DNA of 64,000 nucleotides from a virus (taxonomy: Duplodnaviria; Caudoviricetes). Where the stretch lies: the IMG/VR virus record IMGVR_UViG_3300026549_000030, positions 160,001 to 224,000 of that record; one strand, written 5' to 3'. The position numbers and the translations under genes were made by a program. Below the pieces are notes generated by a model. That model did not search any database and was not told where the DNA came from. It saw only the letters and a program-made list of their open reading frames with translations. This document shows positions 41,846-62,490 of the stretch, piece after piece (the stretch's first letter is position 1; each line of letters opens with the position of its first letter).

Positions 41846-42394
41846 GTGTGCCAAGACAGTGGATACGCCTCCACCCGGGTGAATATATTCTTTAAAATAC
41901 TCGAAGGCGCCGCATACGCAAGTGAATCTACAGTTTTTTTGTATCTGCACGAGAGGAGTGTCTTCCCAATCGCAATCCGTGACTGGTTTCTCAGATAATC
42001 ACCCAAATTTAGAAAATGCGGTGAAAAATGTCTTTGTAACATATTGATTTTCAACAACATACAAAACAGAAGAAAAACAGGAAAAATCTCGAAGTTTTGA
42101 ACTTTATATTCGTTAAAATAATACAGCAGCGTGCATGGGCAAGTGTTTGTTTCAAAAAGTTAAGAGAAAGTCAGAGTGGGAATGGTTGATAGAGATTCTG
42201 CGGAGATAATGTCTGAGATACTTGCGAGTGCGACGAACCTTCTTATTTTAAAGAATATATACAGCCATCTGCAGGCTGGCTCGGGCTTCGGAGAAATTCA
42301 GCGAAAACGAAGAGAATTTTTTGAAAATCGCTGACATTTATTTGCGAATGTAAAACTAATTCACTATCTTTGTATGTAGATAAAGGAAGATATT

Positions 42395-42559
42395 ATGAAA
42401 TGGTTATTCAAGACAATCGTTGACGGAGTAGTAAACACTTGCTACGAATTTGATAGTGAGGAGAAAGCCGAGAGGTGGAGAAAGAACTACATTGAGGAAA
42501 TGAGAAAAATCGGTTGCTATCCGTTAAAGGGTTTGGAACTGAAAGTTGAACAAGCATAA
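42395..42559 (+). CDS. Small early hypothetical protein (54 aa)
   Basis: Hand-translated, directly after promoter. Confidence 0.6.
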   Translation: MKWLFKTIVDGVVNTCYEFDSEEKAERWRKNYIEEMRKIGCYPLKGLELKVEQA

Positions 42560-42570
42560 AATTTATCGTT

Positions 42571-42888
42571 ATGATTAAGGAACACTTTTACGAGGACATT
42601 GCACGAAAGTATCAGTTCGACAAACACATTTGGGAGGGTTGGACTGTAGGCGATTTCGTTGCAGAGTTGGAACCGAGCCTTGACAACATTATGGATTTCA
42701 GTGAGAGCCGTGCATATTGTGAACCGAGATTGACTACCAAGGTAGAGATTAAGGATTGGGTGCGCAACAATCTTCCGTACACCACCAAGGCGCTGAACGA
42801 AGTTACCAAGTATTTCGTGGACAAGTACAATGGAATGGCTATCTTCGATCCTGAAAAGCCGAACTGCATAGGGAAACTGAAACTTTAA
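42571..42888 (+). CDS. Early hypothetical protein
   Basis: 105 aa ORF followed by terminator. Confidence 0.7.
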   Translation: MIKEHFYEDIARKYQFDKHIWEGWTVGDFVAELEPSLDNIMDFSESRAYCEPRLTTKVEIKDWVRNNLPYTTKALNEVTKYFVDKYNGMAIFDPEKPNCIGKLKL

Positions 42889-42911
42889 GGGAAACGATAT
42901 TTTTGAGAGAG

Positions 42912-42937
42912 GGCAATCCGAGAGGGTTGCCTTTTTT
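42912..42937 (+). terminator. Intrinsic terminator, representative of a family closing the early units
   Basis: GGCAATCC-GAGA-GGGTTGCC-T6; similar hairpins near 45151, 46687, 47630, 49856, 52651; GCCACCGA-GAAA-TCGGTGGT type near 49116, 50973. Confidence 0.85.
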
Positions 42938-43261
42938 CGTATCTGTTTCCCATGAGGAGAGTCCTGAGGTGAACTGTAGTATATTCCTTAAAATAGATGA
43001 AGGCGCCGCACGAGCAAGACTTCGGGGAGAAAATGCTGGGGCAATGGGTGGGTGGCAGTTTCTGAAAAAAAGTGAGCGACAGACTTGTCAGTGTCGTCGA
43101 CGTGGATATTTTAAGGAATATATACAGCCAGCTGCAGCTGGTTATCAGGGCAGTCGGGCTTCGGGGCGTTGCTTCCAAAAAAAAGATGAACTTTTTTGCG
43201 CAGGGTATTGCATATGTAAAAAATAATGCGTATCTTTGAATAACAAAAGAAAAGAAAGAAT

Positions 43262-43648
43262 ATGGAAATCGTATCAATGAAGAAAGATTGTCTTGGGACA
43301 ATGGAGTTCACGCTCAAGATTGGAAAGATGAAAAAGGCGGAGAGTTTTTGCACTTATCCAATACAAAAGGGCGATAGTGGGGATAAGGTGTATTTGCAGT
43401 CGCATCATCGTTGGGCGGAGTTGAACACGCAGACGGGCGAAATTATAATGTCAGCAAGAAGAGCGCAGTACGCGAACTCAATGTGGCTGCTTGAATGTCG
43501 CATCAAGGGAACGGATGAAATCGACAAAGCGACAAGCGAACAACTTGAGCAGATGCTTTCAGCAATTCGGAAAACCGCAAGTCCAATGGCAGGTGGCAAC
43601 AATATATTGTCAATGTTCTGCGACAATTCCAACGCAGGGTTAGTGTAG
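43262..43648 (+). CDS. Early hypothetical protein
   Basis: 128 aa, own promoter and terminator. Confidence 0.75.
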   Translation: MEIVSMKKDCLGTMEFTLKIGKMKKAESFCTYPIQKGDSGDKVYLQSHHRWAELNTQTGEIIMSARRAQYANSMWLLECRIKGTDEIDKATSEQLEQMLSAIRKTASPMAGGNNILSMFCDNSNAGLV

Positions 43649-44013
43649 GTTACTTCAGTTGGTTGGTAAAGTCCGTGCCGTATGGCGCGGATTTTTTTGC
43701 TACAGTGTTTTCGGGTGAGCCATAGTCGGAGAAAATTTTTGAGAAAGACTTGCGAGTGTCGCCAGGTGAAGTATTTTAAAGAATATATACACCAGCTGCA
43801 GCTGGTTATCAGGGCAGTAGGGCTTCTTTGCTTATAATATTGAGATGACATACCGTGGATACGTCTTTGCTGTCTGGAGTATATTCTTTAAAATAGCCAG
43901 AGGCATCGCATGGGCAAGAAAATAGACGGATAATTTGTGATAAAAAACTTAAATTAAATTTTGTAATGTTGATTATTTTTATTAAATTTGATGTAAATTA
44001 AAAAGATAATAAT

Positions 44014-44187
44014 ATGAAAAAGAACGAGAAACTTTGCAACGAGTTCAAGGGATTGACTATCTACGATTCCGAGAACGAGCAGTTCCCCTACTTCGTGAAA
44101 GAGTGGGACGAGTGCTTCACCTACGAAGAAATTAAGGAACATTGGAGAGAAGATATGGACTTCGCCAACATTGACACGGAGCAGTAG
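44014..44187 (+). CDS. Small acidic early protein (57 aa)
   Basis: Hand-translated, after promoter 43983. Confidence 0.6.
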   Translation: MKKNEKLCNEFKGLTIYDSENEQFPYFVKEWDECFTYEEIKEHWREDMDFANIDTEQ

Positions 44188-44714
44188 CGCACGAAAGAAA
44201 TGCCTTTGGATTACGGGCGACATTTTGGATAAGGTACCAAAATGTAGATAGCCACCCACCAAATCGGTGGGTGGTTTTCTTTTATCAGGGAGAGTATCCT
44301 GAGTAGAACTGTAGTATATTCTTTAAAATAACAGAAGGCGCCACACGAGCAAGGGTTTGTTCAGAAAAGTGCATTTGGAAGCGTTAGGCGCAGTTTTTCT
44401 GTTCAGGGACTTGCAGATGCGGGTTCTTCATGTATTTTAAAGAATATAATGCGCCGCAGCGAGCGTGCTGAGGCTCTTGGCACAGTTTCACTCGAATGAC
44501 AGACAGAGATTCTTCTGAAATTTCTCGTTCAGCGACTTGCAGGTGTCGTCGATACAGGTATTTTAACGAATATATACAGCTGGCTGCAGGCTGGTTATCA
44601 GGGATGGTCTGGCTTCATGAATCCGCGTTAAAAAAATTTCGCAAGGGTATTGCATAAGTAAAATATTATACTTATATTTGCATAAGGAAAGTTGAACAAT
44701 TAAATCAAGAGGAA

Positions 44715-45128
44715 ATGAACGTTTTTCAGTATTCTTCAGTAGTTGAGCAAAATTGGAAAGCCAATCTCGGAGATATGACGGATTGGAAACCGAGTTACAC
44801 TTTCTATAGCGATTTTGCTATAGCCGAGTTCTGCCAAGTTTGGCTGCGTGAGAATAACGCAGTCAAAAAAACCTACAACCAAGTTATCAAATCTTGGGGG
44901 AGCAACTACAAGGCTTTGACGGAAATCGTTATGGTGCTTAACCACAAATCGTGGGCATTTGCCAAGCCAAACCGAGTGGACGCAAAGTACCTCAATGTCG
45001 GGGATTCGTGGGCGGACTATTTCGTAGAACTCTATAGCGAACTCTATAAGAAAGCGGACGCGCTTTACCGAAAGAAGTTTGCAAAGAACGAAACCGCTAT
45101 GAGTTACTACTTTGATGTAACTGATTAG
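44715..45128 (+). CDS. Early hypothetical protein
   Basis: 137 aa, own promoter and terminator. Confidence 0.75.
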   Translation: MNVFQYSSVVEQNWKANLGDMTDWKPSYTFYSDFAIAEFCQVWLRENNAVKKTYNQVIKSWGSNYKALTEIVMVLNHKSWAFAKPNRVDAKYLNVGDSWADYFVELYSELYKKADALYRKKFAKNETAMSYYFDVTD

Positions 45129-45790
45129 TACTCGATTGAGTACAAGAAATGGCAATCCGAAAGGGTTGCCTTTTTTCGTTGGTACTACCGACAGACTGTG
45201 GTGACGGGACTCAGGAGGTATTATATTCTTTAAAATAAGAAGGCTGCCTGCATGTGCAAGAGTTCAGAGAGGAAATCTGTACTCTACTGCCGTCAATGCT
45301 GTTTTTCTCGTGGAACGACTTGCCGGTGCGGCGTCGTCATCTATTTTAAGGAATATATGGAGGCTGCCAAGACGTCTCGGGCTTCGATAGCGTGGCTTCC
45401 AACAGGGACTTACTGTAAATGCCAAAGAGAGTATCCTGAGGAGCGTGCAATATATTCTTTAAAATAATCCTTCGTCTGACTCATGCAAATTTTTCAAATG
45501 GAATTTTTCCATGAAAAATCTTAAGCGAAAACTTTAGTGGAAATTTGCCCATGCGGCGCCTTCCAGTATTTTAAGGAATATAATAACGGGCTGCCACAGA
45601 ATTGGGCTTCTTGAAAAAAAGTTAAAATTTTTTGAAAGAATCAGAGAGAAAATGGGTATAAATATATGTAAGCAACAAAGAAAAAAAAAACAAAGAAATT
45701 TTGCGCAAGGTATTGTATATGTAAAAATTATTTTGTACCTTTGTTGTCAGAAAGAGATAAGGAAGTATAACCAACAAACACACTACCACT

Positions 45791-46663
45791 ATGGCAAGAG
45801 CAATTGACGTGCGTTGCGGCAGCACCAAGAGCCGCACAATGGCTACCGAACTTTTCATGGCTGAAGCTCGCAAATATAACGTGCTTACGGCTGACGAAGA
45901 GCTTGAGCTTATCAACAAGGCGCAGGCAGGTGATGAATCCGCGAAAACCGCGCTCGTGAACCACAACCTCCGTTTCCTTTTCTCGCTCGCAAGCAAGTTC
46001 GCGAAGGGCGACGAGGCTATGGATTTAGTTTCCTACGCCACGATTGGCATGTACAAGGCAATAGACTCGTATGATGCCACTCGCGGACTACGTTTGCTTT
46101 CTTATGCCGTACATTGGATGCGTGCGGAAATTTCCGAATACTACAACGGTGACGCGCAACTTGTCCGCAATAAGCAGCAGTACAAAGTTGCCGCTCGCAG
46201 TGTACGCGTTAATGACAAGTTTTTCGCGGAAAACGGGCGGTATCCAAGCGAAGCGGAACTCGTTGAGATTCTGAACTCCGAATACAACCTAGAACTGAAA
46301 AAGCGCAGCGATGTCCTTCGCCACTCCTATACCTCCCTCAACTCCAAGATTGACGAGGACGGGGCAACTTTGGAAGAAATTGGAGAGGTTGCTATTGCTA
46401 CCGCCTGCCACAATGAGGTGGAGGACTCGATTGAGTCCGAAGATAGGGCGCACACCCTCGAGAAACTCCTTTCCACACTCCCCCTGCGGAATCGTATGAT
46501 TCTCGAAATGTCTGTCGGAATGGGCGACTACGAGGGCATTGAACGCGATGACGATGCAATCGCAGTAGAACTCGGACTTACGAGGGAGAGAGTCCGTCAG
46601 ATTCGCCTCAAGAGCCTTGCAACTCTGAAGGATAGAGCAAAGCGTATTCTCGCTACCGCATAG
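45791..46663 (+). CDS. Phage sigma70-family (RpoD/RpoH-like) RNA polymerase sigma factor
   Basis: LTADEELEL, LVNHNLRF, YDATRGLRLLSYAVHWMR, IAVELGLTRERVRQI. Confidence 0.92.
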   Translation: MARAIDVRCGSTKSRTMATELFMAEARKYNVLTADEELELINKAQAGDESAKTALVNHNLRFLFSLASKFAKGDEAMDLVSYATIGMYKAIDSYDATRGLRLLSYAVHWMRAEISEYYNGDAQLVRNKQQYKVAARSVRVNDKFFAENGRYPSEAELVEILNSEYNLELKKRSDVLRHSYTSLNSKIDEDGATLEEIGEVAIATACHNEVEDSIESEDRAHTLEKLLSTLPLRNRMILEMSVGMGDYEGIERDDDAIAVELGLTRERVRQIRLKSLATLKDRAKRILATA

Positions 46664-47000
46664 ACTCGGTTGAGTCTGAAAGAAAGGGCAACCCGAAAGG
46701 GCTGTCTTTTTTTTTATGCTTTAGCTATCGACGGCGGAGTCGTATCCGACGCCTGTTTTATATTCCTTAAAATAACGAAGGAGCCTGCACCTGCAAGTCG
46801 CTCGAACAGAAATATTCATTCTATACACCCGTACTGCGGTTTTTATCAGGAGAGTCTTGTGGATGCGGGTTCACCATGTATATTAAGGAATATAAACAGA
46901 TGGCTACCAGCTTCTTCAACAGTTTGAGGCCATGTTAAAAATAAATTTGCACAATAGAAATATTATTCATATATTTGCAATAGATAAAGAGAAAAGAGTT

Positions 47001-47240
47001 ATGAAAATCAGAGTTGTTTCTTACAATGCGTACGAAGAATGGCACGAAGAAAAAATGGCTGAAGGTAAAGGAAAAGGTTTGTCCGAACTGACGGATAAAG
47101 ACTTTATGGAAATTTACAAGAAAGATGGCGCAAATTGGGAGTTTGATTCATTTCGAGCATTTGCAGATGAATTCAATTCTGACGGGCCGTTCGCTCCGAC
47201 TCCATACGCGCATATTATCAGATTTTTCCCTAACGAATAA
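47001..47240 (+). CDS. Early hypothetical protein
   Basis: Start trimmed to ATG after promoter 46970. Confidence 0.65.
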   Translation: MKIRVVSYNAYEEWHEEKMAEGKGKGLSELTDKDFMEIYKKDGANWEFDSFRAFADEFNSDGPFAPTPYAHIIRFFPNE

Positions 47241-47252
47241 AATATTTGGGCT

Positions 47253-47591
47253 ATGAAAATTTCATTATACTTTTCAGATAGAATTAAAAATTTGAAGTAC
47301 GATTTGATTCGTGCAATTACCTCTTCCGTGCTTGGTAACGAAGGTTCTATTGCTTTCCCCACGAGTGACGAGGAAGAAGAAGATAAGGTAGTGATTGACG
47401 CGCACGTTGATATGTCGGGACAGACTGAACCTTGCACAATCGGTAGCGTGGCAATCAACCACAATTTGAATGCGGAAGTTAATATGTCAGGCAGGTTTTT
47501 TGGGCATTGGACGCTTGAAGTAACTGAATTGTCAATCGAATCGCTTTTCTCCATTGTAGAATACCTTGACAAAAATGGCTACGTTAAGTAG
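47253..47591 (+). CDS. Early hypothetical protein
   Basis: 112 aa ORF. Confidence 0.65.
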   Translation: MKISLYFSDRIKNLKYDLIRAITSSVLGNEGSIAFPTSDEEEEDKVVIDAHVDMSGQTEPCTIGSVAINHNLNAEVNMSGRFFGHWTLEVTELSIESLFSIVEYLDKNGYVK

Positions 47592-47914
47592 CGTGGCGAG
47601 GTTCATATTTCTTATTTTTCTTTCAAAAGGGCAGCCGTAAGGTTGCCCATTTTTTTTTCGAGTGTTCTGTTGCGTATGCGGCGAGCCCGTTTATTTTAAG
47701 GAATATACATCCTGTTCAGAGGCGTGGTTTCGAGATGATGTCGATTCATGCTTAAGATAATGCATGCATCCAAAACTGTAGGACATGCAATTATATTCGT
47801 TAAAATACGCTTCCTGACGACACTGACAAATATATCAGGATAAATTTTAGAAGAAAAAATATTTGCATAATTCGCTGAAAATCACTATATTTACATAGTT
47901 AAAGTTAAGTAATT

Positions 47915-48337
47915 ATGAAAGAATCAGAGATTAAAACCTGCCCTTATTGCGGCTCAGAGAACATTGAGTGGATTAGCGATGATGATTGCTACAACGAGTA
48001 CCATTGGCATTGCCACGAGTGCGATTGTTGGTTTGACGCAGACGTTTGTGAACACGAGGAGTATTGGCACCAAATTTCCGCCTTGCTGAATGGAACGAGC
48101 ATTGAGAAGCCATTGGTACTTGGCTCGTATGTTATCCTTCCGTCAGTTGAGGACGAGAGTTGCGGATTGAGCGACTTGGAGAAACTGAACATTGACAAGG
48201 TACACCAAATTGAGGGTGATGGAACTATGTGGTATCATTTTGAGGGAACTCCGGAAACTGACGACTACTGGTATGATATGTCAGAGTTGGACACAAGAGA
48301 TTTGAAGTATCTTCTTGAAGAACTTAGGAACTTATAG
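47915..48337 (+). CDS. Early acidic Zn-ribbon protein
   Basis: CPYCGS...CHECD. Confidence 0.7.
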   Translation: MKESEIKTCPYCGSENIEWISDDDCYNEYHWHCHECDCWFDADVCEHEEYWHQISALLNGTSIEKPLVLGSYVILPSVEDESCGLSDLEKLNIDKVHQIEGDGTMWYHFEGTPETDDYWYDMSELDTRDLKYLLEELRNL

Positions 48338-48615
48338 AGCATATCCTTTGGTGCCGAAACGAAATCCGTGCAGAAATGTACGGATTTTTTTGTTGGAATA
48401 CTTGCGAGTGCCGTCGTCTGTAGTTTTTTAATGAATATAAAGACGGGCTGCCACTGTTCTCTCCTGTTGAATTGCCTCAACCTCCTGAGAAGCGTGCGAT
48501 GTATTCTTTAAAATAAATCACGCTCTGGCATCCACAAATTTTCTTCTCATGTAAAAATAAATTTGGATATGTGAAATTTAATGTTTATCTTTGCAATAGA
48601 TAAAATAAAAGAAAT

Positions 48616-49086
48616 ATGTGCCTTTACATTTCAACTAAATTTCATCACTCTGTCAATGAAGAGTACAGAGCAAAAAAAGTAGGTAAGAATCCGTTGTTAG
48701 TTTGGAAAGTCCTTGAATACAACTATAGTACGCTAGGATACCAAACTCCTTATGAATATTTACCTATCACTTTCAATAATGGAATGAAAGTGGTAGATGG
48801 GATAGGATTTCGTCCCGTAAAGCAAAAGTCGTATTCATATATAAACACGGCTGTGAACGAGGGCGTTCACGCATATCACACAAAGGACGATGCAACAGAT
48901 GCCACGATAGAAGCATTAGAGTCTGGGTGGAGATTTAAGCGATTTCCTGCTATAATTCCTTCGGGCGAAAAATATTTCATTGGGATATACGGGGATATTG
49001 TTGCAAGCAAGATGATTATCTTCAAGAGTATGAAAAGTCTTAACAAATATCTTAACGGAAAAGAAACAACAACAATTGATGATTGA
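48616..49086 (+). CDS. Early protein, MCL family paralog 1
   Basis: MCL..TPYE..GVHAY..AIIPSG..IG..GDIVA. Confidence 0.75.
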   Translation: MCLYISTKFHHSVNEEYRAKKVGKNPLLVWKVLEYNYSTLGYQTPYEYLPITFNNGMKVVDGIGFRPVKQKSYSYINTAVNEGVHAYHTKDDATDATIEALESGWRFKRFPAIIPSGEKYFIGIYGDIVASKMIIFKSMKSLNKYLNGKETTTIDD

Positions 49087-49298
49087 AATTTGGTAGAGTT
49101 ACCAAGGCAGATAGAGCCACCGAGAAATCGGTGGTTTTTTTATTCCCGTACTTGTGAGTGCGGCTCCTTCTGTTATTTTAAGGAATATAAACAGTTCAGG
49201 ATACCTGTTGAACAGCCTCTTCAAAAAAAATGAAAATAAATTTTGATATGTAGAAAATTATGTATATATTTGCAAGTAGATAAATCAAGAAAGAAGAC

Positions 49299-49520
49299 AT
49301 GAAAGCAGAAGAAATTTTTATGACACTTGCGCCTATGATTAGCACCACTGACGGAAAGGTGGCATATTTGCGAATCGGTAAGGGACTTGCCTATGGAAAG
49401 GTTTGGTGCGACTATGTTCGTGCTGACAATGGAGAAAGGATTTATCTTCAAAATAAGTTCTATCCGACTTTGGAAGAATCCATAAGCGCACTCTACGATG
49501 TAGTAGTAAAAAGCAACTGA
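49299..49520 (+). CDS. Early hypothetical protein
   Basis: 73 aa after promoter. Confidence 0.65.
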   Translation: MKAEEIFMTLAPMISTTDGKVAYLRIGKGLAYGKVWCDYVRADNGERIYLQNKFYPTLEESISALYDVVVKSN

Positions 49521-49521
49521 C

Positions 49522-49833
49522 ATGAAAAAGGCAATCGTTAATGTAGAATATACAAAGAATTGGGCGAATGATGGCTATGACACATATTCTACAAAGGACT
49601 ACAAGAAGATCGCTGAACTTGATTTTCCGACAAAGGACAGAAGTGAGTTCCGCGTGTACAAGGGTGACGGATATGGTGCATACGATTTGAACTACACAAC
49701 CTATCCGACTTTGCCTATGGCTATGCAGGGCGCAGAGCAGGCGTGCAAGTCTTTTCTCCTTAACAAGAAACGCTATGTTGAAAAGTTCAACTATCCGCAG
49801 GAAACAAACGAATCGCTCAAAATGGGCGACTAA
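49522..49833 (+). CDS. Early hypothetical protein
   Basis: 103 aa then terminator. Confidence 0.65.
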   Translation: MKKAIVNVEYTKNWANDGYDTYSTKDYKKIAELDFPTKDRSEFRVYKGDGYGAYDLNYTTYPTLPMAMQGAEQACKSFLLNKKRYVEKFNYPQETNESLKMGD

Positions 49834-50237
49834 TACTTTGCGTCTCTATCAAAATGGCACTCCGAGAGGGGTGCTTTTTTTTGCTTGAGTTCTTGCCCGT
49901 GCGACAAACCTGATTATTTTAAAGAATATAATTACAGTGGTTCTCGAAGCATGGACAGGGCTCCTCAGATACGTCGGCGTGATATATTCTTTAATATACG
50001 CTGCGATCTGGCATGGGCAAATTTTCCACGATGAAAAAAAATGAAAATAATTTTGCAATTGTAAAATAAAACACATATATTTGCAATAAGAAAAATACAC
50101 AAATATGACACAAGCTGAATTAGATTTTTTAACGAGAACCCCAAGACTTCTCAATGCAATGGTGGATGAGCTTAAAAAGCTTAACGAGAATATCAAGAAA
50201 CTCACCGAAAAGGTTGAAAACCTGGAGGATTAACTCT

Positions 50238-50639
50238 ATGTACACCGAGAAATGCAAAAAAGCTATCGCAGCTCTTGAATCAATTACGGGAGCTTTCGCG
50301 AAAACAGAGCAGCTTGCTATCGCCACGCTGAAGGCATTGCTTCTTCCCGTGGGTGAACACGGAGTAACTGTTACGAATCTTGACGAGCTTGCAGAGAACG
50401 AGTTCATCGTTCTCGCGGAGGAAAAGCCGTTTGACTTTAAGCCCGTAACTCTTGTACGTTACAATGAGAAGAAAGACTCAATTGAGGTGTTTGTCTCCGA
50501 GTGGGAAGAATACAAGGTATCCGTCTCCGCAGAGGGCAGGTGGGTTGATATTGAGGACGCGCACGTTGATACGCACTTTCTCCTTGACAACGTTATCACC
50601 AATCTTGAATGGGCAGACTATTACGATGAAGATGAATAG
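50238..50639 (+). CDS. Early hypothetical protein
   Basis: Start trimmed (MYTEK); a 42 aa ORF at 50105-50233 precedes it. Confidence 0.6.
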   Translation: MYTEKCKKAIAALESITGAFAKTEQLAIATLKALLLPVGEHGVTVTNLDELAENEFIVLAEEKPFDFKPVTLVRYNEKKDSIEVFVSEWEEYKVSVSAEGRWVDIEDAHVDTHFLLDNVITNLEWADYYDEDE

Positions 50640-50862
50640 CAAGATTTGGCTGAACACGGAATACATCAGCCACGCAGGAGAAACAATAGAAACCTGCATT
50701 GTCGGTGGGACGAGAGTTATCTATGTCCACTATGAGAACGGCTACTACTCCCTTATTGAAGGGGTGAAGAATCTGCTGAATTTCCTTCACGGAGATACTA
50801 CCGAGAGATTCGCTTGCTGCGAAACTATGAGCGAAGTCCTTGATGAACTTGATAAGATATAA
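50632..50862 (+). CDS. Early hypothetical protein
   Basis: Start trimmed (MNSKIW). Confidence 0.55.
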   Translation: MNSKIWLNTEYISHAGETIETCIVGGTRVIYVHYENGYYSLIEGVKNLLNFLHGDTTERFACCETMSEVLDELDKI

Positions 50863-51184
50863 TAGACTCGTTTGAGTCCTAAAATAATACCGCCTTATGA
50901 GAAGTCCGCCCTATTAGATTATTATTCTGATTTTATCTCTAATTTTTAATAATTTTTAGTATAACTTTAACAGCCACCGAGAAATCGGTGGTTTTTTTTA
51001 TATCATTACTTGTGGGTGCGAACGTCGTGGTTATTTTAAGGAATATAAACAGAAGAAGCTCAGGACGTTATAATCAATTTTGCTCAATTATCAAAGCCAA
51101 TGATATAATGCAAAATGAGTGAAAATAAATTTGGAAATTAGATTTATTCTTCATATCTTTGCATCGAACAAAAGAGAAAGAGAA

Positions 51185-51373
51185 ATGGAAAAAACTTTCA
51201 CAATTCACTACGGATACCAAAATGGAAATTCTCGGTATCATTACAAAGTCCGCATTATGTGTGAGGAAAGCAAGGTAAAGGAAATCTCCAAGGCGGTTGC
51301 CAATGGAGAACGTGTCGATTGGTGCTACGTTGAGGGCGAGAACTATCGTTTAACAATTTGTGATTGTATGTAA
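51185..51373 (+). CDS. Early hypothetical protein
   Basis: ATG after promoter 51154. Confidence 0.55.
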   Translation: MEKTFTIHYGYQNGNSRYHYKVRIMCEESKVKEISKAVANGERVDWCYVEGENYRLTICDCM

Positions 51374-51374
51374 T

Positions 51375-51722
51375 ATGGAAAATCTTAATCGCATAGAAAT
51401 CCAAGGTACTCTTGGTAGAATCAGCACCACAATGGTAGGCGGCAAGCTCCACGCAAATTTTGCAGTGGCTACCAACTGTGCATACAAGGATGCAAGCGGA
51501 AATGCCGTACTTGAAACAACGTGGCATAGAATATCAGCCTTTGAGAGCGAAAAAATTTCTGCCGAAACTCTCAATGAAATTCGCAAGAAATATGCGGAGA
51601 AACGCGACTTTGTATATGTAAGGGTTGTGGGCAGACTGCGCCAAATAAGGTATGTTGATACCAATGGTGTCAGTAACTTAACCTATGAGGTAAAAGCAAA
51701 CGAGGTGGAAATTTTGAAATAA
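51375..51722 (+). CDS. ssb: Single-stranded DNA-binding protein (OB fold, no acidic tail)
   Basis: NRIEIQGTLG, FAVATN, TTWHRI, VVGRLRQIRY..YEVKA. Confidence 0.85.
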   Translation: MENLNRIEIQGTLGRISTTMVGGKLHANFAVATNCAYKDASGNAVLETTWHRISAFESEKISAETLNEIRKKYAEKRDFVYVRVVGRLRQIRYVDTNGVSNLTYEVKANEVEILK

Positions 51723-51788
51723 AGCCAAAATAAATTTGCAATTGTCAAAATAAAATCCTATCTTTGTAGTAGAAAAACAATAAGATAT

Positions 51789-52001
51789 ATGGAATACGAT
51801 TTCAAAAGATTAGGCTACGGATTCAAGGGATACCTTGACTGTGATGTGGATGAACTTTGCCACACCGATGTGTACGGAGTTTCCGTGTACGATGCCGAGA
51901 GCGGAGAACACCTCAAGGACATTGACTTCACCGATATCGAAACCATTGGCGATATGACAACCGATGAACTCATCGATTGGCTTGCCGACAACGAACTCTA
52001 A
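51789..52001 (+). CDS. Small highly acidic early protein
   Basis: 70 aa, D/E-rich, own promoter. Confidence 0.65.
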   Translation: MEYDFKRLGYGFKGYLDCDVDELCHTDVYGVSVYDAESGEHLKDIDFTDIETIGDMTTDELIDWLADNEL

Positions 52002-52577: not shown

Positions 52578-52904
52578 TCCAAAGTCAAACAACCGATTGA
52601 AGAAAAGTCCTATGTAAAACCAAAATGAAGGCATTTGGCAATCGGCAGAGAGCAACCCGAAAGGGTTGCTTTTTTTTTGTTGATACTTGTGGGTGCGAGC
52701 GCCCCCGTTATTTTAAGGAATATATTCCTCCTTCACCTATGTCACTCTCAGAGAACTCTCAGGACGACGCCGCGTGTATATTCTTTAATAAACTCACCTT
52801 CGTCACACCGGCAAGGATCTGACCAGGTAAAAAAAAATAAAAATAAATTTGCAAATTAAAATTATTTTCCCTATCTTTGCATTGAACAATAAAAGAGAAT
52901 TATT

Positions 52905-54525: not shown

Positions 54526-54834
54526 ACACACTTCTTTTCTATAATAACTCTCTTTTTGAAAGACGCATCCAAATCGGGTGCGTTTTTCTGTTTTATCCCT
54601 TGCCCGTGCGACGAAGGCATCTATATTAAGGAATATAACGGTGAAGAAGGAGCCAATGGAGCTGGTGGACCGACGGCGGATACCTGTCCTGCGGCGGGAT
54701 TATATTCTTTAATAAACTGTCGGATCCGGCATCTGCAAAAATTTCCGCCACAAATATTTTATAAATTTGTGTCAAATAAATTTGCAAATTAAAATAAAAA
54801 GTCCTATCTTTGCATTGAACAAAAAACAGGTATT

Positions 54835-55110: not shown

Positions 55111-55112
55111 TC

Positions 55113-55500: not shown

Positions 55501-55932
55501 ATGAGCAAGAAAGAAATGAGAAAGAAAGTCCACGAGCTTATGCTCAAGAACAATGTGGATATGGTTAGCCTCCCTGCCAATGTTGCTATGCTTGTTGGCT
55601 TGGAGTATATCACTTTCAAGGGAAAGAACGACATTCAAGGCATCAACTTTGACGAAGAATACGTTTCCATTCCTGACGATGACATTGAAGATGTGTACAA
55701 TGCAGTCCGTAGGGAACTTTCCGACATTCACCTTTACGAGCTTTCCGAAGCTGAGGTTAAGAAGCTTCAAAGCGAAATCGTGATGGGTAGCTACTATCTT
55801 GCCGACTATGCCAATTCGCTCGGTGTTTCAGCAACTGAAGTCTCCAACTACGCATATGGCTATCTTGAGGTTGCGGATGAATACGATTATTCATTCTACG
55901 ACTATATTCAGAGTGTAGAATTTTGCGAATAA
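55501..55932 (+). CDS. Early hypothetical protein; in-frame TM-bearing extension possible from 55312
   Basis: Promoter at 55447-55478 lies inside the longer ORF. Confidence 0.65.
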   Translation: MSKKEMRKKVHELMLKNNVDMVSLPANVAMLVGLEYITFKGKNDIQGINFDEEYVSIPDDDIEDVYNAVRRELSDIHLYELSEAEVKKLQSEIVMGSYYLADYANSLGVSATEVSNYAYGYLEVADEYDYSFYDYIQSVEFCE

Positions 55933-56155
55933 AATTATAGCAATATGGACTACAAGGAAAAAATGATTGCCCTTCTTAACGAAATGCATCGGGACAAAAA
56001 TGCAGGGCTTATTCCAATGGTTATTGCAGAGGCGGTTAAGGACTGCGAAGCCATTAAAGAGCAGCCCTATCTTGACTACTATGTTGCCTGCGCATTTTAC
56101 GGAAAATAGGTTGCCTTATTCAAAAATTTCCATAAGTTTATAGAAAAACAATATT

Positions 56156-56989
56156 ATGGCATATCACAAGATTCTATTCATCGGCACGGACTTGGAAAAG
56201 GCACTTGCCCCTTACGATGAGAACAATACTGACGCACTCGTACCTGTGAATCACACGGAGCATTACCGCTATGAGTATGAGAATCACAAGGACGATGAGG
56301 AGTTCCGTTCTCAATATCCCGAAGGTACGTTCGAACAATTCATTGACTATTGGGTTGGACTACCCATAGTGGAGAAAAAGGATGAGAAAGCCGCAGGGGA
56401 AAAGAAAGAACACTTTGCGCTGAAAGAGGACGATGGCACAATCAAGGTTATCCTCTTTATTAATCCAAAAACGCAGTTCAACTACTACGAAATTGTCCAC
56501 GATTTCAATGGCGATTACAATTATCGCAAAGAGTTGGAAGGCGAAGAAAGGCAGAGAAGAAAGGATTATCAAGAGGCGGTTAAGGCACTCGGACACGCAC
56601 CTCGTTTCGAATCGTGGAATAGCATTATCATCAAGGCGCAGAACGGAGAGCTTGGAGAAGCTGAAAATTCAGAGAATCTTCTGGAGTTGGCGCAGGATTA
56701 CTACTACAATCAGCCCGACAGAAAGAAGCTTGCGGATGTTCTTCCCTACGTTGAAGATTTCATCGGAAACTGCAAGGATGAAAAAGACTACGTTTCCCAC
56801 GTTTCGCTTCCCTATTATGCTATCCTTACCGATGAGGGTTGGTTTTCGCAAGTTCAGGGTTCATATTATATGGGCGTTACTGAAGAGCCACTCCCCGACA
56901 AGGAATGGAAAAAGCTCCAAATTGAGTTGGTTAAGAAAGCCACAAGCAAAAAAGGGTACAAAGCTTATATCGTTACCACGAAAATCTAA
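56156..56989 (+). CDS. Early hypothetical protein
   Basis: 277 aa ORF then terminator. Confidence 0.75.
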   Translation: MAYHKILFIGTDLEKALAPYDENNTDALVPVNHTEHYRYEYENHKDDEEFRSQYPEGTFEQFIDYWVGLPIVEKKDEKAAGEKKEHFALKEDDGTIKVILFINPKTQFNYYEIVHDFNGDYNYRKELEGEERQRRKDYQEAVKALGHAPRFESWNSIIIKAQNGELGEAENSENLLELAQDYYYNQPDRKKLADVLPYVEDFIGNCKDEKDYVSHVSLPYYAILTDEGWFSQVQGSYYMGVTEEPLPDKEWKKLQIELVKKATSKKGYKAYIVTTKI

Positions 56990-57189
56990 TCGTTCATTTC
57001 ATAGTTACTTTGTTTGGCACGGAGAAATCCGTGCTTTTTTTTGCTACGGCGGACAGACGTCGGTGACGGGTTTATATTCGTTAAAATAACGCTGCGGCTC
57101 GCATCCACAAATTTTTATTCTCGTGCAAAATAAATTTGGAAATGAAATTTATTTTACCTATCTTTGCATTGTAAGAAAAAGGCAAAGTT

Positions 57190-57417
57190 ATGAAAGAGTT
57201 TTATTCAGAGGTTAAATGCGACTACAATAACGATGAGGGTTATTGGTGTGTCGATGCGTGGCGCACAAACTGTGACGATGAGGAAGGCAAGGTTATTGCC
57301 GCAATCCATGAAACCACAGGGGATGTTTTCTACTGTGAACCCGAAGCTCGTATTTCACCTATGGCGCAGGAAACCATCAAGGCAAAAGTAGAAGAAATTA
57401 AAAACAATCAAAAATAA
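57190..57417 (+). CDS. Early hypothetical protein
   Basis: 75 aa after promoter. Confidence 0.65.
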   Translation: MKEFYSEVKCDYNNDEGYWCVDAWRTNCDDEEGKVIAAIHETTGDVFYCEPEARISPMAQETIKAKVEEIKNNQK

Positions 57418-57423
57418 AGTATT

Positions 57424-57642
57424 ATGGAAAGAATTGCTATTATCGACCACGATGAGCACCAACTTTTTGTTGAGGATATTGACGAAACCATCCTCAACCG
57501 CGACTACGGTGGCGAAGAAGAAGCATATATCAAGGACAATTACAACCTTGAGAATTTCAGTTGGGACTACATTGTCCGAACGGAATATTACCCCGAAAAC
57601 GGAGACGACCCTATGGAGGTAGATTTCACGGATTTGCTGTAA
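57424..57642 (+). CDS. Small acidic early protein
   Basis: 72 aa. Confidence 0.65.
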   Translation: MERIAIIDHDEHQLFVEDIDETILNRDYGGEEEAYIKDNYNLENFSWDYIVRTEYYPENGDDPMEVDFTDLL

Positions 57643-57708
57643 AAAAAATTGCATATTCCAAAATTTAATCTTATCTTTGCAATAGAAACCAATTAAAAAC
57701 AAAGTATT

Positions 57709-58062
57709 ATGAAAATTACGAAAGAGCAAATCAAGGCGGCAGAACAGGTGCTTATTGACAACGGCATTGAGGCTGACGATGTGAAAACCGTCCTTCAGGA
57801 AATCGGATGCACCCTTCTCGATGAGAAACTCTATCCGGAAGAAGAAACAGAGGACGCACCAAAGACGCAGAAATTCACTTTCCGTTTTCACACTCACGGT
57901 TGGACTGATATTACCGTTGAGGCGGAGGATGAAGAAGAAGCTGAAGAGCTTGCAAACGACAAATATAACAACGGTGACTACGATGATTCCGATTCGGATT
58001 TTGAGAACACCGATATGGAGAACGTAACCGACTACTACGTTGAGAACAACATTCCACAATAG
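57709..58062 (+). CDS. Acidic early protein
   Basis: 117 aa; ITVEAEDEEEAEELA. Confidence 0.7.
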   Translation: MKITKEQIKAAEQVLIDNGIEADDVKTVLQEIGCTLLDEKLYPEEETEDAPKTQKFTFRFHTHGWTDITVEAEDEEEAEELANDKYNNGDYDDSDSDFENTDMENVTDYYVENNIPQ

Positions 58063-58338
58063 TAAAATTCGCTCTTATGAAAAGTCCGAGGCAGAAATGC
58101 TTCGGATTTTTTTTGCTTCGGCCTTGCCCGTGCGACGAACCTGAATATTTTAACGAATATACTACGGTTCTGAGAACAGGGGCTGCCGTCGATAACCAGC
58201 CTGCAGCTGGCTGTTTATATTCCTTAAAATACGCTGCACGCTCGCATCCACAAGAAATTCACTGTAAAAATAAACAAAAATAAATTTGCAAATTAAAATT
58301 ATTCTTATTACCTTTGCCATGAACAAAAGAAACAAAGA

Positions 58339-58858
58339 AATGAGACATTTTGAAAAAATCAACAACGGCGTTACTATCCTCAACACCTTTGTTAACGAAG
58401 AAGATTACAGGGAAATGTATGAAGATTGGCACGAAGAAGGCGAATCCCTTTTTGACTTCGCGCAGAGGCGTATTGAGTTCGAGTGCGATGATTTTTGGAA
58501 CAATCTCCGTGCAGTCAAGGATTCTTCATATATCGACTATTATGTAGTCACTGGCGAGCTTGGACTTTGGAACGGTATTCACACCATTGTTCCCGTGACT
58601 TTCAACAATCTATATGACGCCCTTTCAAAATGCGCCACGGATGCCTACGATATTGTAGTCAAATACGAAGATAATGCCATCAAGTTCGAGTGCCATCACC
58701 ACGATGGCGTAAACTGTTTCGAGGTTCGCAACCTGAGCTTCGACGACTACGACAAAATCGAGTGGTGGGACGATGACAAGGACGGCGACGTTTTTGAATT
58801 CATAAAGAAACACGCAAAGCCTATTTCGTGGGAAATGATTGGACAGGGTGCATTCTAA
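58339..58858 (+). CDS. Early hypothetical protein
   Basis: GELGLWNG...HHDG; start trimmed. Confidence 0.7.
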
Positions 58859-58870
58859 AAGTTTAAAGAT

Positions 58871-59194
58871 ATGGCAAAGAAACTTACAAACATTACATTC
58901 GTGACAAAGACTAACAACTGGTTTGCTCCCACGAAGGAACTCAAGGAAAAATACAAATCAGTTATCGACACGGAGCTTATGGATACGACTTCTTCCGCAG
59001 GAGATTGGAGTGGATTCATAATTCAGAAGATAGGAAAGAATACTTTTGTCGCAATCGGATTCAGTCAGTACAACAATTATCCCCACGATGGATTCTGCCT
59101 TATGACTTGTGAACATCCTTTCTATCGCGGAAAACTCGACAAGAAGAATTGGATGGAAAATGTCAGGAGTTGTTGGCTTCAGTTTGACAATTAA
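58871..59194 (+). CDS. Early hypothetical protein
   Basis: 107 aa. Confidence 0.65.
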   Translation: MAKKLTNITFVTKTNNWFAPTKELKEKYKSVIDTELMDTTSSAGDWSGFIIQKIGKNTFVAIGFSQYNNYPHDGFCLMTCEHPFYRGKLDKKNWMENVRSCWLQFDN

Positions 59195-59464
59195 AAATAA
59201 ATTTGGATATTAAAAATATTATCACTATATTTGCAGTACAATAGACTCGGTTGAGTATAAATTAACAACTAAATACTATGTTTGGCGAAGATTTATTGAT
59301 AACAATTTGTGGCATTATCGTAATAGTTTTAATTGCTTTAATATTCGCTTCGCCAATTATTATAACGGAGTATAAAATTAGAAAGCGGAAAAAGCAAAAT
59401 CCAAACTATACCGATTTGGACGCATTTAATGAATTTTTTAAGTAACAATTAAAACAATAAAATT

Positions 59465-59911
59465 ATGGCACTGTTTTTTATCGGATTTGCTCTTATCATT
59501 ATCGGACTTGTTTGCGTTTCTCTTGCTATCGGACGCGGCAGGGGACTCAAGTGGGCTAAAACAATCAATTTCACTACCGATGTCGACGAAGCGAAAAAGG
59601 TTGTATCAGACATCAACGCAAAATATCAAGAAAGAATTTCTAACGAGAACGGACAAAACGGAGATACGTTATATCCGTTAGGCTGGTTCCTTCTATGGAT
59701 TGGAATTATGGTTTTCGTACCCAGCTTAGCCCTTCTTCGTGAACGCTATGTCAAGCAATATTGCGACGGAAAATATGAGTGGGAACAGGTCGCGTATGTC
59801 AATGAACGCGGAGAGGTGCGCCCTGTGGAAAGCAAGACACTCGTAAGGGTTAAGGATTTCTCGGACAGGAAAACCTTCTACCTACAGAAAGATACAACTT
59901 CAACGGAATAA
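59465..59911 (+). CDS. Early membrane protein (2 TM segments)
   Basis: Two hydrophobic segments. Confidence 0.7.
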   Translation: MALFFIGFALIIIGLVCVSLAIGRGRGLKWAKTINFTTDVDEAKKVVSDINAKYQERISNENGQNGDTLYPLGWFLLWIGIMVFVPSLALLRERYVKQYCDGKYEWEQVAYVNERGEVRPVESKTLVRVKDFSDRKTFYLQKDTTSTE

Positions 59912-59919
59912 AAATCAAA

Positions 59920-59980
59920 GGGGCACTCTAACTCAGGAGTAATAATAATGAAGCGGGAATGAGTGAAACCGCGAAGCCCC
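59920..59980 (+). ncRNA. Candidate structured RNA: three-way junction with loop-loop pairing
   Basis: GGGGC/GCCCC closing stem, ACTC/GAGT and GCGG/CCGC hairpins, loops contain ACTCA and TGAGT. Confidence 0.35.
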
Positions 59981-60180
59981 CGAGAGAAACCACGTCGAAA
60001 GGCGTGGTTTTTTTGTTGATTTGCTTGCCCGTGCCAGCAGGCGAAATATATTAAGGAATATAAACAGCCGGATCCTCGTTCAATGTCCTGATCGAAATAA
60101 ATTTCATAATAAAAGTTAAATAAATTTGGATGTTAATTTTATTTTCCCTATATTTGCATTGAAACAAAAAACAAAGTAAT

Positions 60181-60558
60181 ATGAAACACAGAAAATGGTT
60201 TTTAATTAAGGTTATCTACGATATCATTTCACAGGAAATGGTGGAGTATGTAGACATTAAGGGCGGTGGGCTCGCTATGCAGGCAAATGTGGGATTCCGA
60301 GCCGCTTTTACCGCAACGCTCAAAAGGGTTTTCCTCCCTATTGTCACCACTCCCATAATTGGAGAGTATGGTATGCTTCTCGACATTGAGAACGAGGACG
60401 GAGAGGTAGAGCAGCACACCTATTATGCAGAGGACTTTGGAGAGCAGACACTCCTCGACATCGCTCGTGCAGTCTATGAAACAATGTGGACTCCTGCCTA
60501 CAAGACTTGGAAAGAGTACCTGGTCTGGGAAGAGGAGAAATACAAGAACATTTTTTAA
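60181..60558 (+). CDS. Early hypothetical protein
   Basis: 125 aa after promoter. Confidence 0.7.
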   Translation: MKHRKWFLIKVIYDIISQEMVEYVDIKGGGLAMQANVGFRAAFTATLKRVFLPIVTTPIIGEYGMLLDIENEDGEVEQHTYYAEDFGEQTLLDIARAVYETMWTPAYKTWKEYLVWEEEKYKNIF

Positions 60559-60570
60559 AAAAATAAACTA

Positions 60571-60759
60571 ATGGCTAAATTTTCTGTTAAAGTGCACTAC
60601 GAAACTTTCTGCTATCGCGAGGTTGAGGCAGAAAACCGCAATGAAGCCTACGACAAGGCTTGTACAGCTATCGACGCGTCCACTGATGAGGAATTCGAGA
60701 AAGAAATCGTACGTAACCTCACCAACGTTCACGACCCAGAAATCTACAAAATAATCTAA
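60571..60759 (+). CDS. Small early protein
   Basis: EVEAENRNEAYDKA. Confidence 0.65.
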   Translation: MAKFSVKVHYETFCYREVEAENRNEAYDKACTAIDASTDEEFEKEIVRNLTNVHDPEIYKII

Positions 60760-61283
60760 TGTAATTTATTGTACAAATCAATTTGACTAATGCTAAATCC
60801 GTAAAAAGTTTCACCTCGCTTCATCGCCTTCATTAAATGTTCGCGTTTGCATCCGAAAAATTGCTCAGCAATGTATTGGTTATCGAATTTAATTTCAACA
60901 CCTTCTTTCTTACAAATTATATGCTTTTCAGCAATTTTTCTTTGAGATTTTTTTACATGTTCCAAACTTAACGAATTATTTGAATTTTCTTTTGGCGATA
61001 CCCATCTTAAGTTATCAACTGAATTATTTAAAATATCAGTATCAATATGATCAACGTTTGGCTTATTTTCCGGATTTGGTATGAAATATTGAGCAACAAG
61101 ACGATGTATTAAATGCCTTTCTACTACTTTCCCTTTTTTATACAATGCAATTTGTAAATATCCTTGAGATTGTTTTGCACCTTTAAGTTTTTTTAAACCG
61201 CGATTTTTACCGCACATCTTATATACAAATCCATCATTCCCGATGTAATAATTTGTAAACCCAGTTATTTGTTTTATTTCCAT
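60756..61283 (-). CDS. NUMOD4-HNH homing endonuclease
   Basis: ITGFTNYYIGNDG, IHRLVAQYFIPNPENKPNVDHIDT..NN..NLRWVS; AT-rich, antisense to neighbours. Confidence 0.88.
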   Translation of the reverse strand: MEIKQITGFTNYYIGNDGFVYKMCGKNRGLKKLKGAKQSQGYLQIALYKKGKVVERHLIHRLVAQYFIPNPENKPNVDHIDTDILNNSVDNLRWVSPKENSNNSLSLEHVKKSQRKIAEKHIICKKEGVEIKFDNQYIAEQFFGCKREHLMKAMKRGETFYGFSISQIDLYNKLH

Positions 61284-61347
61284 AACATATCAAATATACT
61301 AATAAATATCTAATTAAATCAAAATAAACTAATAAAATTTCACGAAT

Positions 61348-62217
61348 ATGGATACAATGTTACATTTCAACAACGATTCGCTTCACCGTCCTATGACTAA
61401 GGACGAAATCCGTCAGAAGGCTCCCTACATTTTCGCAGAAGGTGCCACCAACCCCGGCGTGTCCGACAGGTACGTTTTCGCCAACACCGAGACGATTATC
61501 GACGATATGGAGAAACTCGGGTGGGACGTGGTAGACTGCAAACAGCAGCGTCCGAACAAGCGCAGCAGTGTGCGAAGCTTCCATATGGTTGCCTTCCAGA
61601 ACAAGAACGTCTATATCACCAAGACGAATGCCGACGGTACTGAGAGCATTGATTGCTTCCCTCGTATCATCCTCACCAACTCACACGACGGATTCAACTC
61701 CTTTAAATTTATGGTAGGACTCTTCCGCCTCGTGTGCTCCAACGGACTCGTGGTTGCCACCGAAACCTTCGCCAACGTCGCAATCAGGCATATCAACTAT
61801 ACCTTCGACGAACTCCGCGAAATCGTCGCCAAGGCAATCTTCAACGTTTCCGACAACATTAAGGTGATGAACGAAATGCAGAACACCGTTCTTACCTATG
61901 AGCAGAAACGCGCTCTCGCTAACGAGGCAATGCGTATCCGCAACAACAGTAGCGACGACGAGGACGAGAAGCCTGTCGAGCTCTCCGACGAGGACGCCGA
62001 GGATATCCTCTCTCCTCTCCGCGAAGAGGACAAGGGCGACGACCTGTGGACAGTGTTCAACCTCCTGCAGGAGAAAATCATCAAGGGCAGCTTCAAAATG
62101 CTCTCCCCCACCAACGGCAAGACGCGTAAAGCACGCCCTATCACGGGAGTCGCTCGTGACATTGAAATCAATCAGGCTCTGTTCCTGTATGCCTCCGAGC
62201 TCCGCCTCGCAGCATAA
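61348..62217 (+). CDS. DUF932/DUF945-family protein
   Basis: SDRY..T, ILTNSHDG, GLFRLVCSNGL, DLWTVFNLLQE. Confidence 0.85.
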   Translation: MDTMLHFNNDSLHRPMTKDEIRQKAPYIFAEGATNPGVSDRYVFANTETIIDDMEKLGWDVVDCKQQRPNKRSSVRSFHMVAFQNKNVYITKTNADGTESIDCFPRIILTNSHDGFNSFKFMVGLFRLVCSNGLVVATETFANVAIRHINYTFDELREIVAKAIFNVSDNIKVMNEMQNTVLTYEQKRALANEAMRIRNNSSDDEDEKPVELSDEDAEDILSPLREEDKGDDLWTVFNLLQEKIIKGSFKMLSPTNGKTRKARPITGVARDIEINQALFLYASELRLAA

Positions 62218-62490
62218 CTCTCTCTACCTCAACCGAATTGGACTGCAGAAATGCAGTCCTTTTTTTTTTTTGTTGCCAAGCTTGCCGGTGTCGCCGCGAA
62301 GGTTTTATTATAGAATGTAGAAGCTGGTGACCCGAGCCTCTCCTCCTGGTGGTCTGCACGCTGTACATTCTATAAAAAAACAGAACAGTTCGCATCCACA
62401 AATAAATTTTCCTGTAAAAAAAAAATCGAAATAAATTTGGATATTAAATTTATTATCCCTATCTTTGCAACGTAATCAAAGAGAAACATT

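Follow-up and report, generated by a model that had tools for sequence, protein, structure and literature searches.

A 40-bp bipartite intergenic element, a candidate phage-specific promoter class, in the early-gene array of an uncultured giant phage of Bacteroidota

Intergenic regions of an uncultured giant phage of Bacteroidota harbor numerous copies of a 40-bp element composed of two conserved blocks. The element was found in the window analyzed here, a stretch of 64,000 nucleotides comprising bases 160001-224000 of one 241,996-bp phage record (IMG/VR record IMGVR_UViG_3300026549_000030; CheckV completeness 68%). It is real, highly non-random, and specific to one phage clade, and all copies are confined to one array of early genes. 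From its architecture it appears possible that the element represents a phage-specific promoter class, read via a sigma-70-family factor encoded in the array and embedded in cassettes resembling the promoter-early stem-loops (PeSLs) of T4-type phages, with backward-facing copies giving antisense or interfering transcription. This reading, deduced from sequence, is put forward tentatively, its probability being slightly below one half (about 0.48). The copies, their restriction to the array, their architecture, the lineage-specific variants, the recombination joints, and the linkage to the sigma gene are direct observations, whereas polymerase binding, the start site, the identity of the reader, and the effect of backward copies are deduced.

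The element and its confinement to one array

A first-pass annotation of the window had listed 34 copies, 18 on the plus and 16 on the minus strand, with 16 of them in the first 5 kb of the array, 18 in the next stretch, and none in 1-41.6 kb. The consensus given there, with up to three mismatches allowed, matched the window 27 times and 100 shuffles not once. When a position weight matrix (PWM) made from the copies was run over the entire 241,996-bp genome, exactly 39 sites were obtained with scores of 30.9-52.1 bits; in the rest of the genome nine positions scored above 0 and none above 12 bits. All 39 copies are located in a single stretch of 24.7 kb, genome 201884-226553 or, in window coordinates, 41884-66553. 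The window holds 34 of them (18 plus, 16 minus; 16 between 41.9 and 46.9 kb, 18 between 47.6 and 62.4 kb), exactly the count and distribution annotated, and five more are found just beyond its end. The genome-wide scan, which the annotation had proposed as a check, places the motif in the array and not throughout the genome. Every copy could be aligned without gaps, the spacer between the blocks being fixed at 11 bp as claimed, and none overlaps a plausible gene, in line with the annotated intergenic location. The array genes are nearly all on the plus strand.

The anatomy of the element was derived from 135 non-redundant copies of this phage and its close relatives. Block 1 reads yTTGY-nn-RTGYG and block 2 TWTTTTAA-R-GAATATA; residues T3, T4, G5, G11, T25, T27, T29, T30, A31, G34, A35, A36, T37, and A40 are invariant. 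The TTG at positions 3-5 is followed, at a constant distance of 19 bp, by a T-rich box. Position 26 is occupied by A (83 copies) or T (52 copies), and positions 31-32 are AA, never TG. The spacer (positions 13-24) and the first 15 bp past the element are GC-rich, and block 2 forms a 16-bp AT island, the consensus of which is palindromic at five of eight base pairs only. Conservation is cut off sharply at position 40. The annotated extent of 40 bp holds for the core, but conservation in fact reaches farther upstream: T is found at -13 to -11 in 107-111 of the 135 copies and positions -3 to +1 are A-rich, in copies of both orientations.

Several of these features are known from promoters of the sigma-70 family. 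A TTG box and a TA..TT box 19-21 bp apart are present, and the TTG-N19-T-rich geometry is close to that of the host-type promoters (TTG-N20-TAnnTTTG) in the same gaps. Block 2, located between GC-rich flanks, has about the size of an open-complex bubble. The upstream T-tract and A-tract occupy positions like those of the UP-element subsites in Escherichia coli promoters. If the T-rich box is taken as a -7/-10 box, the predicted start falls near positions 37-40, precisely where conservation ends. The layout also agrees with the Bacteroidota promoter consensus, which has TTTG at -33 and TAnnTTTG at -7 (PMC7366714). The element does not conform to A at the second -10/-7 position combined with a terminal TG; since it lacks the TAnnTTTG end, it would, if a promoter, not be one of the host primary sigma factor.

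The sequences following the copies are heterogeneous and without a universal motif, and predicted RNA structure in the 34 nt after the element is like that of shuffles (mean z -0.25, equal to the upstream control). Two other functions were considered and rejected, a copy read backwards that forms a terminator with the adjacent hairpin and a copy heading a structured RNA, the downstream sequence being unstructured and free of common motifs. No Rfam match was obtained for 41000-64000 with E values up to 0.1. With copies on both strands and irregular intervals between clusters, the element does not match CRISPR either, in line with the annotation.

Cassette layout, relatives, and recombination joints

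In about 20 intergenic regions the copies are placed between a terminator and a host-type promoter, the order annotated as typical. Usually, the stop codon is followed by a terminator hairpin with a T-run, about 8 nt, a plus copy, 52-60 variable bp, and a minus copy; about 20 bp later the uniform host-type promoter begins, and then comes the ATG. An intrinsic terminator at 49856-49875 (plus), its T-run about 8 nt ahead of a plus copy, is one example. In the first 5 kb, mostly a minus copy comes first and a plus copy second. The distance between copy and host-type promoter ranges from about 20 to about 120 bp. Twenty of the 39 copies are directed at genes. The remaining 19 look back toward the 3' end of the cassette before them, and downstream of these no conserved RNA was detected.

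The orientation of neighboring copies was counted in the window and in relatives, in which loci overlap and ancestry is shared, so that the cases are not independent. Convergent neighbors number 44, divergent ones 43, and tandem ones 7, so that the inverted pairing already noticed in the annotation holds for 87 of the 94 cases. From start to start, neighbors lie about 81-134 bp apart (about 95 bp for alternating copies), with a sharp peak at 96 bp for divergent neighbors. Convergent pairs consist of 40-bp inverted arms around a core of 52-60 bp and measure 124-173 bp overall. Three solitary copies are on the plus and two on the minus strand.

The individual copies in the window are given here with their PWM scores in bits. 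The leftmost one, at 41884-41923 (minus, 50.2), points to the boundary described below and is followed by copies at 42105-42144 (minus, 42.6) and 42220-42259 (plus, 47.7). A divergent pair is found at 42980-43019 (minus, 46.6) and 43083-43122 (plus, 41.4), a convergent pair at 43748-43787 (plus, 46.9) and 43880-43919 (minus, 46.7), and further copies at 44315-44354 (minus, 45.2), 44409-44448 (plus, 46.7), and 44535-44574 (plus, 42.5). Four copies precede the sigma gene, at 45222-45261 (minus, 44.1), 45318-45357 (plus, 50.9), 45451-45490 (minus, 32.0, with a degenerate block 1), and 45543-45582 (plus, 49.5). Downstream of this gene, copies are present at 46759-46798 (minus, 48.1) and 46855-46894 (plus, 42.1). 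Farther on, convergent pairs, each a plus copy followed by a minus copy, are located at 47668-47707 (44.9) and 47792-47831 (37.9), 48400-48439 (39.7) and 48500-48539 (39.3), 49891-49930 (47.9) and 49983-50022 (42.5), 52685-52724 (52.1) and 52777-52816 (41.0), 54598-54637 (44.3) and 54701-54740 (36.8), 58122-58161 (46.3) and 58216-58255 (45.2), and, both degenerate, 62280-62319 (30.9) and 62364-62403 (32.1). Solitary gene-directed copies reside at 49150-49189 (plus, 47.3), 51008-51047 (plus, 45.6), and 60023-60062 (plus, 42.9). The solitary copy at 57073-57112 (minus, 44.5) is opposed to all genes; its block-1 end is 21 bp from a host-type promoter at 57134-57166 (plus).

Searches beyond this genome yielded the element in close and more distant relatives only. 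In IMG/VR, the motif pattern produced a single chance match, and a looser pattern single chance matches only among the matches listed. A blastn search of 50,697 phage records with 45000-52000 as the query was negative, and 185,579 bacterial and archaeal species genomes contained single chance hits of at most 29 bits, with no multi-copy matches. A metagenome scan revealed 111 copies distributed over 21 short contigs (1-20 per contig), in the same paired layout and flanked by genes 67-98% identical to those of the window. Contigs of distant relatives were picked via homologues of the sigma gene at 45791-46663. Three of them carry dense arrays, with copies counted per 14-15 kb, in which the 40-bp frame is kept, both orientations occur, and nearly all copies are intergenic: L080 (sigma 68%, 29 copies, block 1 yTTGy..r.Gys, block 2 TwTTTTATAGAATrTA), L081 (sigma 51%, 20 copies, yTTG.TTTTGCs and TATTTTA.AyAATAw), and L083 (sigma 42%, 28 copies, TTTG.wwTT.Cs and TATTTTAAkGAATATA). 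In L209 (sigma 39%), one pair, matching a loose core pattern only, is located directly ahead of the sigma gene, and contigs with sigma homologues of 33-37%, which are tightly packed, showed no element.

Such a fixed architecture combined with letters that drift between lineages is predicted for a phage-encoded reader. It would be expected neither for a host reader nor for recombinational homology alone, the longest invariant run being 16 bp. Judged from these alignments, the architecture is old and constrained. The annotated view of one dedicated cis-acting system with one reader protein is favored indirectly, by the absence from species genomes and the lineage-specific consensus.

Close relatives also differ in the arrangement of cassettes. 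In L038, two cassettes are in swapped order and extra cassettes are present. L089 is without 43018-44277, with a 76-bp overlap in a leader and backward copy, and L020 without 49274-50035, with a 50-bp overlap in a host-type promoter region. In L084, L086, and L087, whose sigma genes are 99% identical to that of the window, homology breaks off at 45567, precisely the base with which block 2 of copy 45543-45582 begins, and upstream of this joint the copies are arranged differently. Breakpoints of gene gain, loss, or exchange are therefore found at the sites, a comparison that the annotation had proposed as a check. Since joints occur in any repeated intergenic module, general homologous recombination is indicated rather than a dedicated recombinase; of the proposed recombination sites for cassette shuffling, the joints at copies stand, but joints are also found in host-type promoters and a dedicated system is not apparent.

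The host-type promoters conform to aTTTGsAwaTkwA-N12-TAtcTTTGca, with boxes TTG-N20-TAnnTTTG. About 29 good ones are present in the array, where the class is concentrated, and all are directed at genes. They form a family of near-identical repeats of about 45 bp (AAATAAATTTGGATATGAA...CTATCTTTGCA; window coordinates 42340-66690, about 29 sites), conserved well past the -33/-7 boxes and including a T five bases after TTG. The terminator hairpins (GGCAAyCCGAAAGGGTTGCC plus T-run) are likewise near-identical between gaps, for example at 45151-45170, 46680-46716, and 42904-42939, and only about one in the array looks bidirectional. The ends of short public contigs are assembly breaks in these hairpins, which are repeated between intergenic regions. 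Such ends were rejected as marks of transcript ends, since they fall in repeated terminators and one in a Nextera adapter: positions 1-19 of Logan contig L088 are the Nextera transposase adapter, and this 5' end is a library artefact.

The array is opened by a G-rich, palindromic boundary element at 41641-41845, which divides it from leftward late-type genes. It is 82-84% identical in L019, L038 (at 3362-3539), and L039, and a look-alike recognized by eye is located in L209 at 9300-9520, directly before the element pair and the sigma gene. It may be a genome end, a packaging signal, or a replication signal. Relatives' early arrays contain cassettes absent from that of the window: an EcoRI-type methylase is encoded in L083 (7587-8483) and, together with a GmrSD_N-domain protein, in L081 (6250-8691).

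The candidate reader and competing interpretations

The candidate reader is a sigma-70-family protein of 290 aa encoded at 45791-46663 (plus), with Pfam regions 1.2, 2, and 4 and sigma hits in NCBIfam and PHROG. In all related lineages examined, its gene is part of the array, the homologues in L080, L081, and L083 being located in dense arrays, and three to four copies of the element precede it. The sigma factor is the only protein common to all four lineage fragments. In alignments it is 30-33% identical to primary-type sigma factors of 287-289 aa and retains the region 4.2 helix ERVRQ of cellular primary sigma factors, whereas region 2.4 differs (HWMRAEISEY versus WWIRQAI). With region 4.2 kept and region 2.4 changed, a conserved TTG box and an altered -10 box would fit. 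Words of block 1 also appear in some host-type promoters, TTTGGAATTACC in L083 and TTTGGAATTGCG/GTA in L081, and in the window both classes have TTG-n3-(A/R)TG in common. These shared words suggest a common upstream module, the downstream box and the spacer being different.

Under the promoter reading, block 1 would be the -33/-35 box, followed by the GC-rich 11-bp spacer, and block 2 would supply a variant -7/-10 box as well as the melted region and the start near 37-40; the T-tract near -50 and the A-tract near -40 would constitute an UP element. The site would be bound by the RNA polymerase core of the host together with a phage factor. The likeliest factor would be the sigma protein of 45791-46663, itself made from a host-type early promoter (TTG-N20-TACCTTTG, 45711-45743, plus). 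Gene-directed copies would then bring about a second, phage-controlled transcription wave of early cassettes, the sigma gene included, and polymerases starting at backward copies would run into the cassette before, giving rise to antisense or interfering transcription. Copies, terminators, and repeated host-type promoters together would make up PeSL-like cassettes, and recombination between them would shuffle early genes. Among the roles listed in the first-pass annotation, a phage-sigma promoter class has the most in its favor, namely geometry, UP-like tracts, a common block 1, and a sigma gene in the array, but the main difficulty for any promoter reading, roughly every second copy pointing away from all genes, was not weighed there.

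A number of observations speak against a promoter. The 19 copies opposing every neighboring gene score equal to the gene-directed ones, unlike the about 29 host-type promoters, which all face genes. An ordinary promoter class predicts neither alternating orientation (44/43/7) nor distances of 81-134 bp with a divergent peak at 96 bp. At position 26, corresponding to the key -11 adenine, 39% of the copies have T. Outside the array, no intergenic region of the genome contains even the relaxed core TTG-N19-TWTWTTAA, and other spacings (N17, 18, 20, 21) gave 0-4 hits only, which would leave the supposed sigma factor without a regulon beyond its own neighborhood. As only about one terminator appears bidirectional, backward copies would yield long antisense RNA. 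The leaders after copies are neither conserved nor structured, and the tie to this particular sigma factor is co-location, in contigs selected by that same sigma gene.

Because half of the copies are backward and alternating, the core is found in the array only, just one terminator looks bidirectional, and leaders are unstructured, a serious rival has to be considered, which we regard as possible though doubtful: an operator, insulator, or architectural site for a non-sigma phage DNA-binding protein, without an RNA start at the element. An asymmetric site of 40-53 bp would be bound as a unit in inverted pairs about 95 bp apart, and the complexes would flank early cassettes, switching the region as a block or stopping read-through. 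An orientation independent of genes with inverted neighbors, narrow spacing, and the 96-bp divergent peak would be expected for such sites, as would solitary copies facing either direction. The position in the gap from terminator to host-type promoter, which is otherwise untranscribed, the strict confinement to the early array, and a lineage-specific consensus, as for a fast-evolving phage protein, agree as well. However, a candidate binding protein was not found, the sigma factor alone being shared by the four lineage fragments. At least 29 conserved positions over 40-53 bp, along with promoter-like geometry, tracts, and block 1, would be a striking coincidence, and the variation of 20-120 bp to the host-type promoter is awkward for a classical repressor or activator. 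The annotation had also named a ParB-like protein, whose gene starts at 63807, as a possible binder, with parS-like loading or protection of injected DNA as roles. Nothing was found in support of these. The protein, judged by family name, matches ParB-like phage families only and was not found in related fragments, and the 39 copies are asymmetric; parS is a short palindromic site with few copies near parB, bound by a ParB protein with an HTH domain. It is also conceivable, but rather unlikely, that a two-way module rather than an ordinary promoter class surrounds every early cassette. It would be made up either of sigma-dependent back-to-back and face-to-face promoters, the backward ones directing polymerase into the cassette before them and shutting early genes off as the phage sigma factor accumulates, or of sites for a phage protein insulating the cassettes. 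If true, a clade of giant Bacteroidota phages would control and reshuffle its host-takeover genes via one co-evolving protein-DNA code.

Promoters for phage-encoded polymerases typically have a high information content and are conserved across the start region, and both traits are seen in the element. A promoter for an unrecognized phage RNA polymerase or virion-delivered factor would make the sigma gene at 45791 merely a target. Such a gene could lie in the missing part of the 68% complete record, and the element is restricted to the early, presumably first-expressed region. Still, we consider this improbable: no RNA polymerase large subunit (Rpb1-type domain) was detected in the 242 kb, the presence of three to four sigma genes suggests that the host core enzyme is used, a TTG box and a block 1 partly in common with host-type promoters fit recognition by sigma region 4, and the orientation of the copies is as difficult to explain as under the favored promoter class. 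Less probable again is a dedicated recombination or mobility site, formed by MITE-like ends or targeted by a site-specific recombinase in the manner of integron attC. Convergent pairs do resemble 40-bp terminal inverted repeats, cassette order and content vary (L038, L089, L020), and one joint coincides exactly with the edge of block 2. Yet reading of the flanks revealed no target-site duplications, copies in divergent, tandem, or solitary arrangement occur as often as those in convergent pairs, and conservation runs 13 bp past the outer end, so that a MITE or other terminal inverted repeat was rejected. Integron attC was rejected in agreement with the annotation, as the arms differ at all variable positions and cannot form a hairpin, no tyrosine recombinase (Phage_integrase) was found in the 242 kb, and the cassettes carry their own promoters, unlike integron cassettes. 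At the remaining joints, the homologies are 50-76 bp long and comprise host-type promoters or leaders, in keeping with general homologous recombination.

The 242-kb genome contains at least three sigma genes above the Pfam cut-off and one weaker hit. Besides the gene at 45791, matches to sigma-70 region 2 are located at genome 7915-8112 (minus), 17845-18054 (minus), and 131787-131978 (plus), one of them under the Pfam cut-off. A separate motif, (G/C)TATTTATA, is found about 20-30 nt before the start codons of many genes outside the array and has no upstream box; examples of the TATTTATA class are at window 3616 (genome 163616) and genome 16356, 23111, 81838, and 105248. It is probably the late-promoter class of another phage sigma factor.

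Two other array proteins deserve mention. A Cys/His-rich protein of 140 aa (47915-48337, plus) shows 84% identity in L080 and 75.5% in L081, in both of which it is more conserved than the sigma factor and its gene adjoins the sigma gene. It was rejected as a universal partner, as no L083 homologue was detectable and no family matched. A DUF932 protein (E 1e-25) is encoded within the array at 61348-62217 (plus), and a DUF932 gene is also located near the 37% sigma homologue in L208.

To our knowledge, next to nothing has been described of the transcription programs of Bacteroidota phages, especially of uncultured giant ones from gut and rumen. The 40-bp site, of which at least three further lineages have variants, provides a precise and testable handle, and the candidate reader is a phage sigma factor that resembles the host primary sigma factor but has a changed -10-reading region. 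Should the link between this sigma factor and the element hold, orthogonal sigma/promoter pairs for Bacteroidota and a model of sigma-promoter co-divergence would be at hand. If the backward copies are active, antisense or colliding transcription would systematically time early genes. Under either reading, promoter or protein site, the cassettes explain gain, loss, and reordering of genes in the early region.

Comparison with known systems

Face-to-face promoters are known from coliphage 186, in which pR and pL are 62 bp apart and subject to transcriptional interference. Predicted starts in typical convergent pairs of the array are about 45-65 bp apart. The 186 arrangement is a single switch between two gene sets, whereas dozens of pairs are present here and the backward member has no gene.

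The middle promoters of T4 consist of a MotA box centered at -30 and a -10 element, depend on sigma appropriation, and occur in tandem with early promoters. The element would likewise be a second, phage-controlled class sharing its gaps with host-type early promoters, and it too consists of two parts, the upstream box being about one helical turn away from the -10 element. In contrast to T4, no MotA/AsiA homologue was identified and a complete sigma factor is encoded, and T4 middle promoters are co-directional with the genes.

Promoters of the Bacteroidota primary sigma factor (PMC7366714) are similar in having a TTG box, 19-20 bp to a TA..TT box, AT-rich upstream tracts, an intergenic location, and part of block 1. 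They differ in that the -7 box of the element ends in AA instead of TG, eight more downstream bases are nearly invariant, the intervening sequence is GC-rich and 19 bp rather than 20 bp long, and half of the copies lack a gene downstream.

A close parallel in layout is provided by the PeSLs of T4-type phages, repeats composed of a terminator and a promoter (Arbiol et al. 2010, PMC2839356; Comeau et al. 2014, PMC4122927). As in these phages, repeated composites are found in a hyperplastic region of small, variable orphan genes, each cassette has transcriptional autonomy, and homologous-recombination joints in the repeats account for insertions, deletions, and swaps among close relatives. The two do not resemble each other in sequence and belong to phages of different host phyla. 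The promoters of PeSLs are gene-directed early promoters of host sigma-70. This applies to the host-type module of the array, which is separate here, but not to the 40-bp element, an extra class with fixed spacing, both orientations, alternating pairs, and a lineage-specific sequence.

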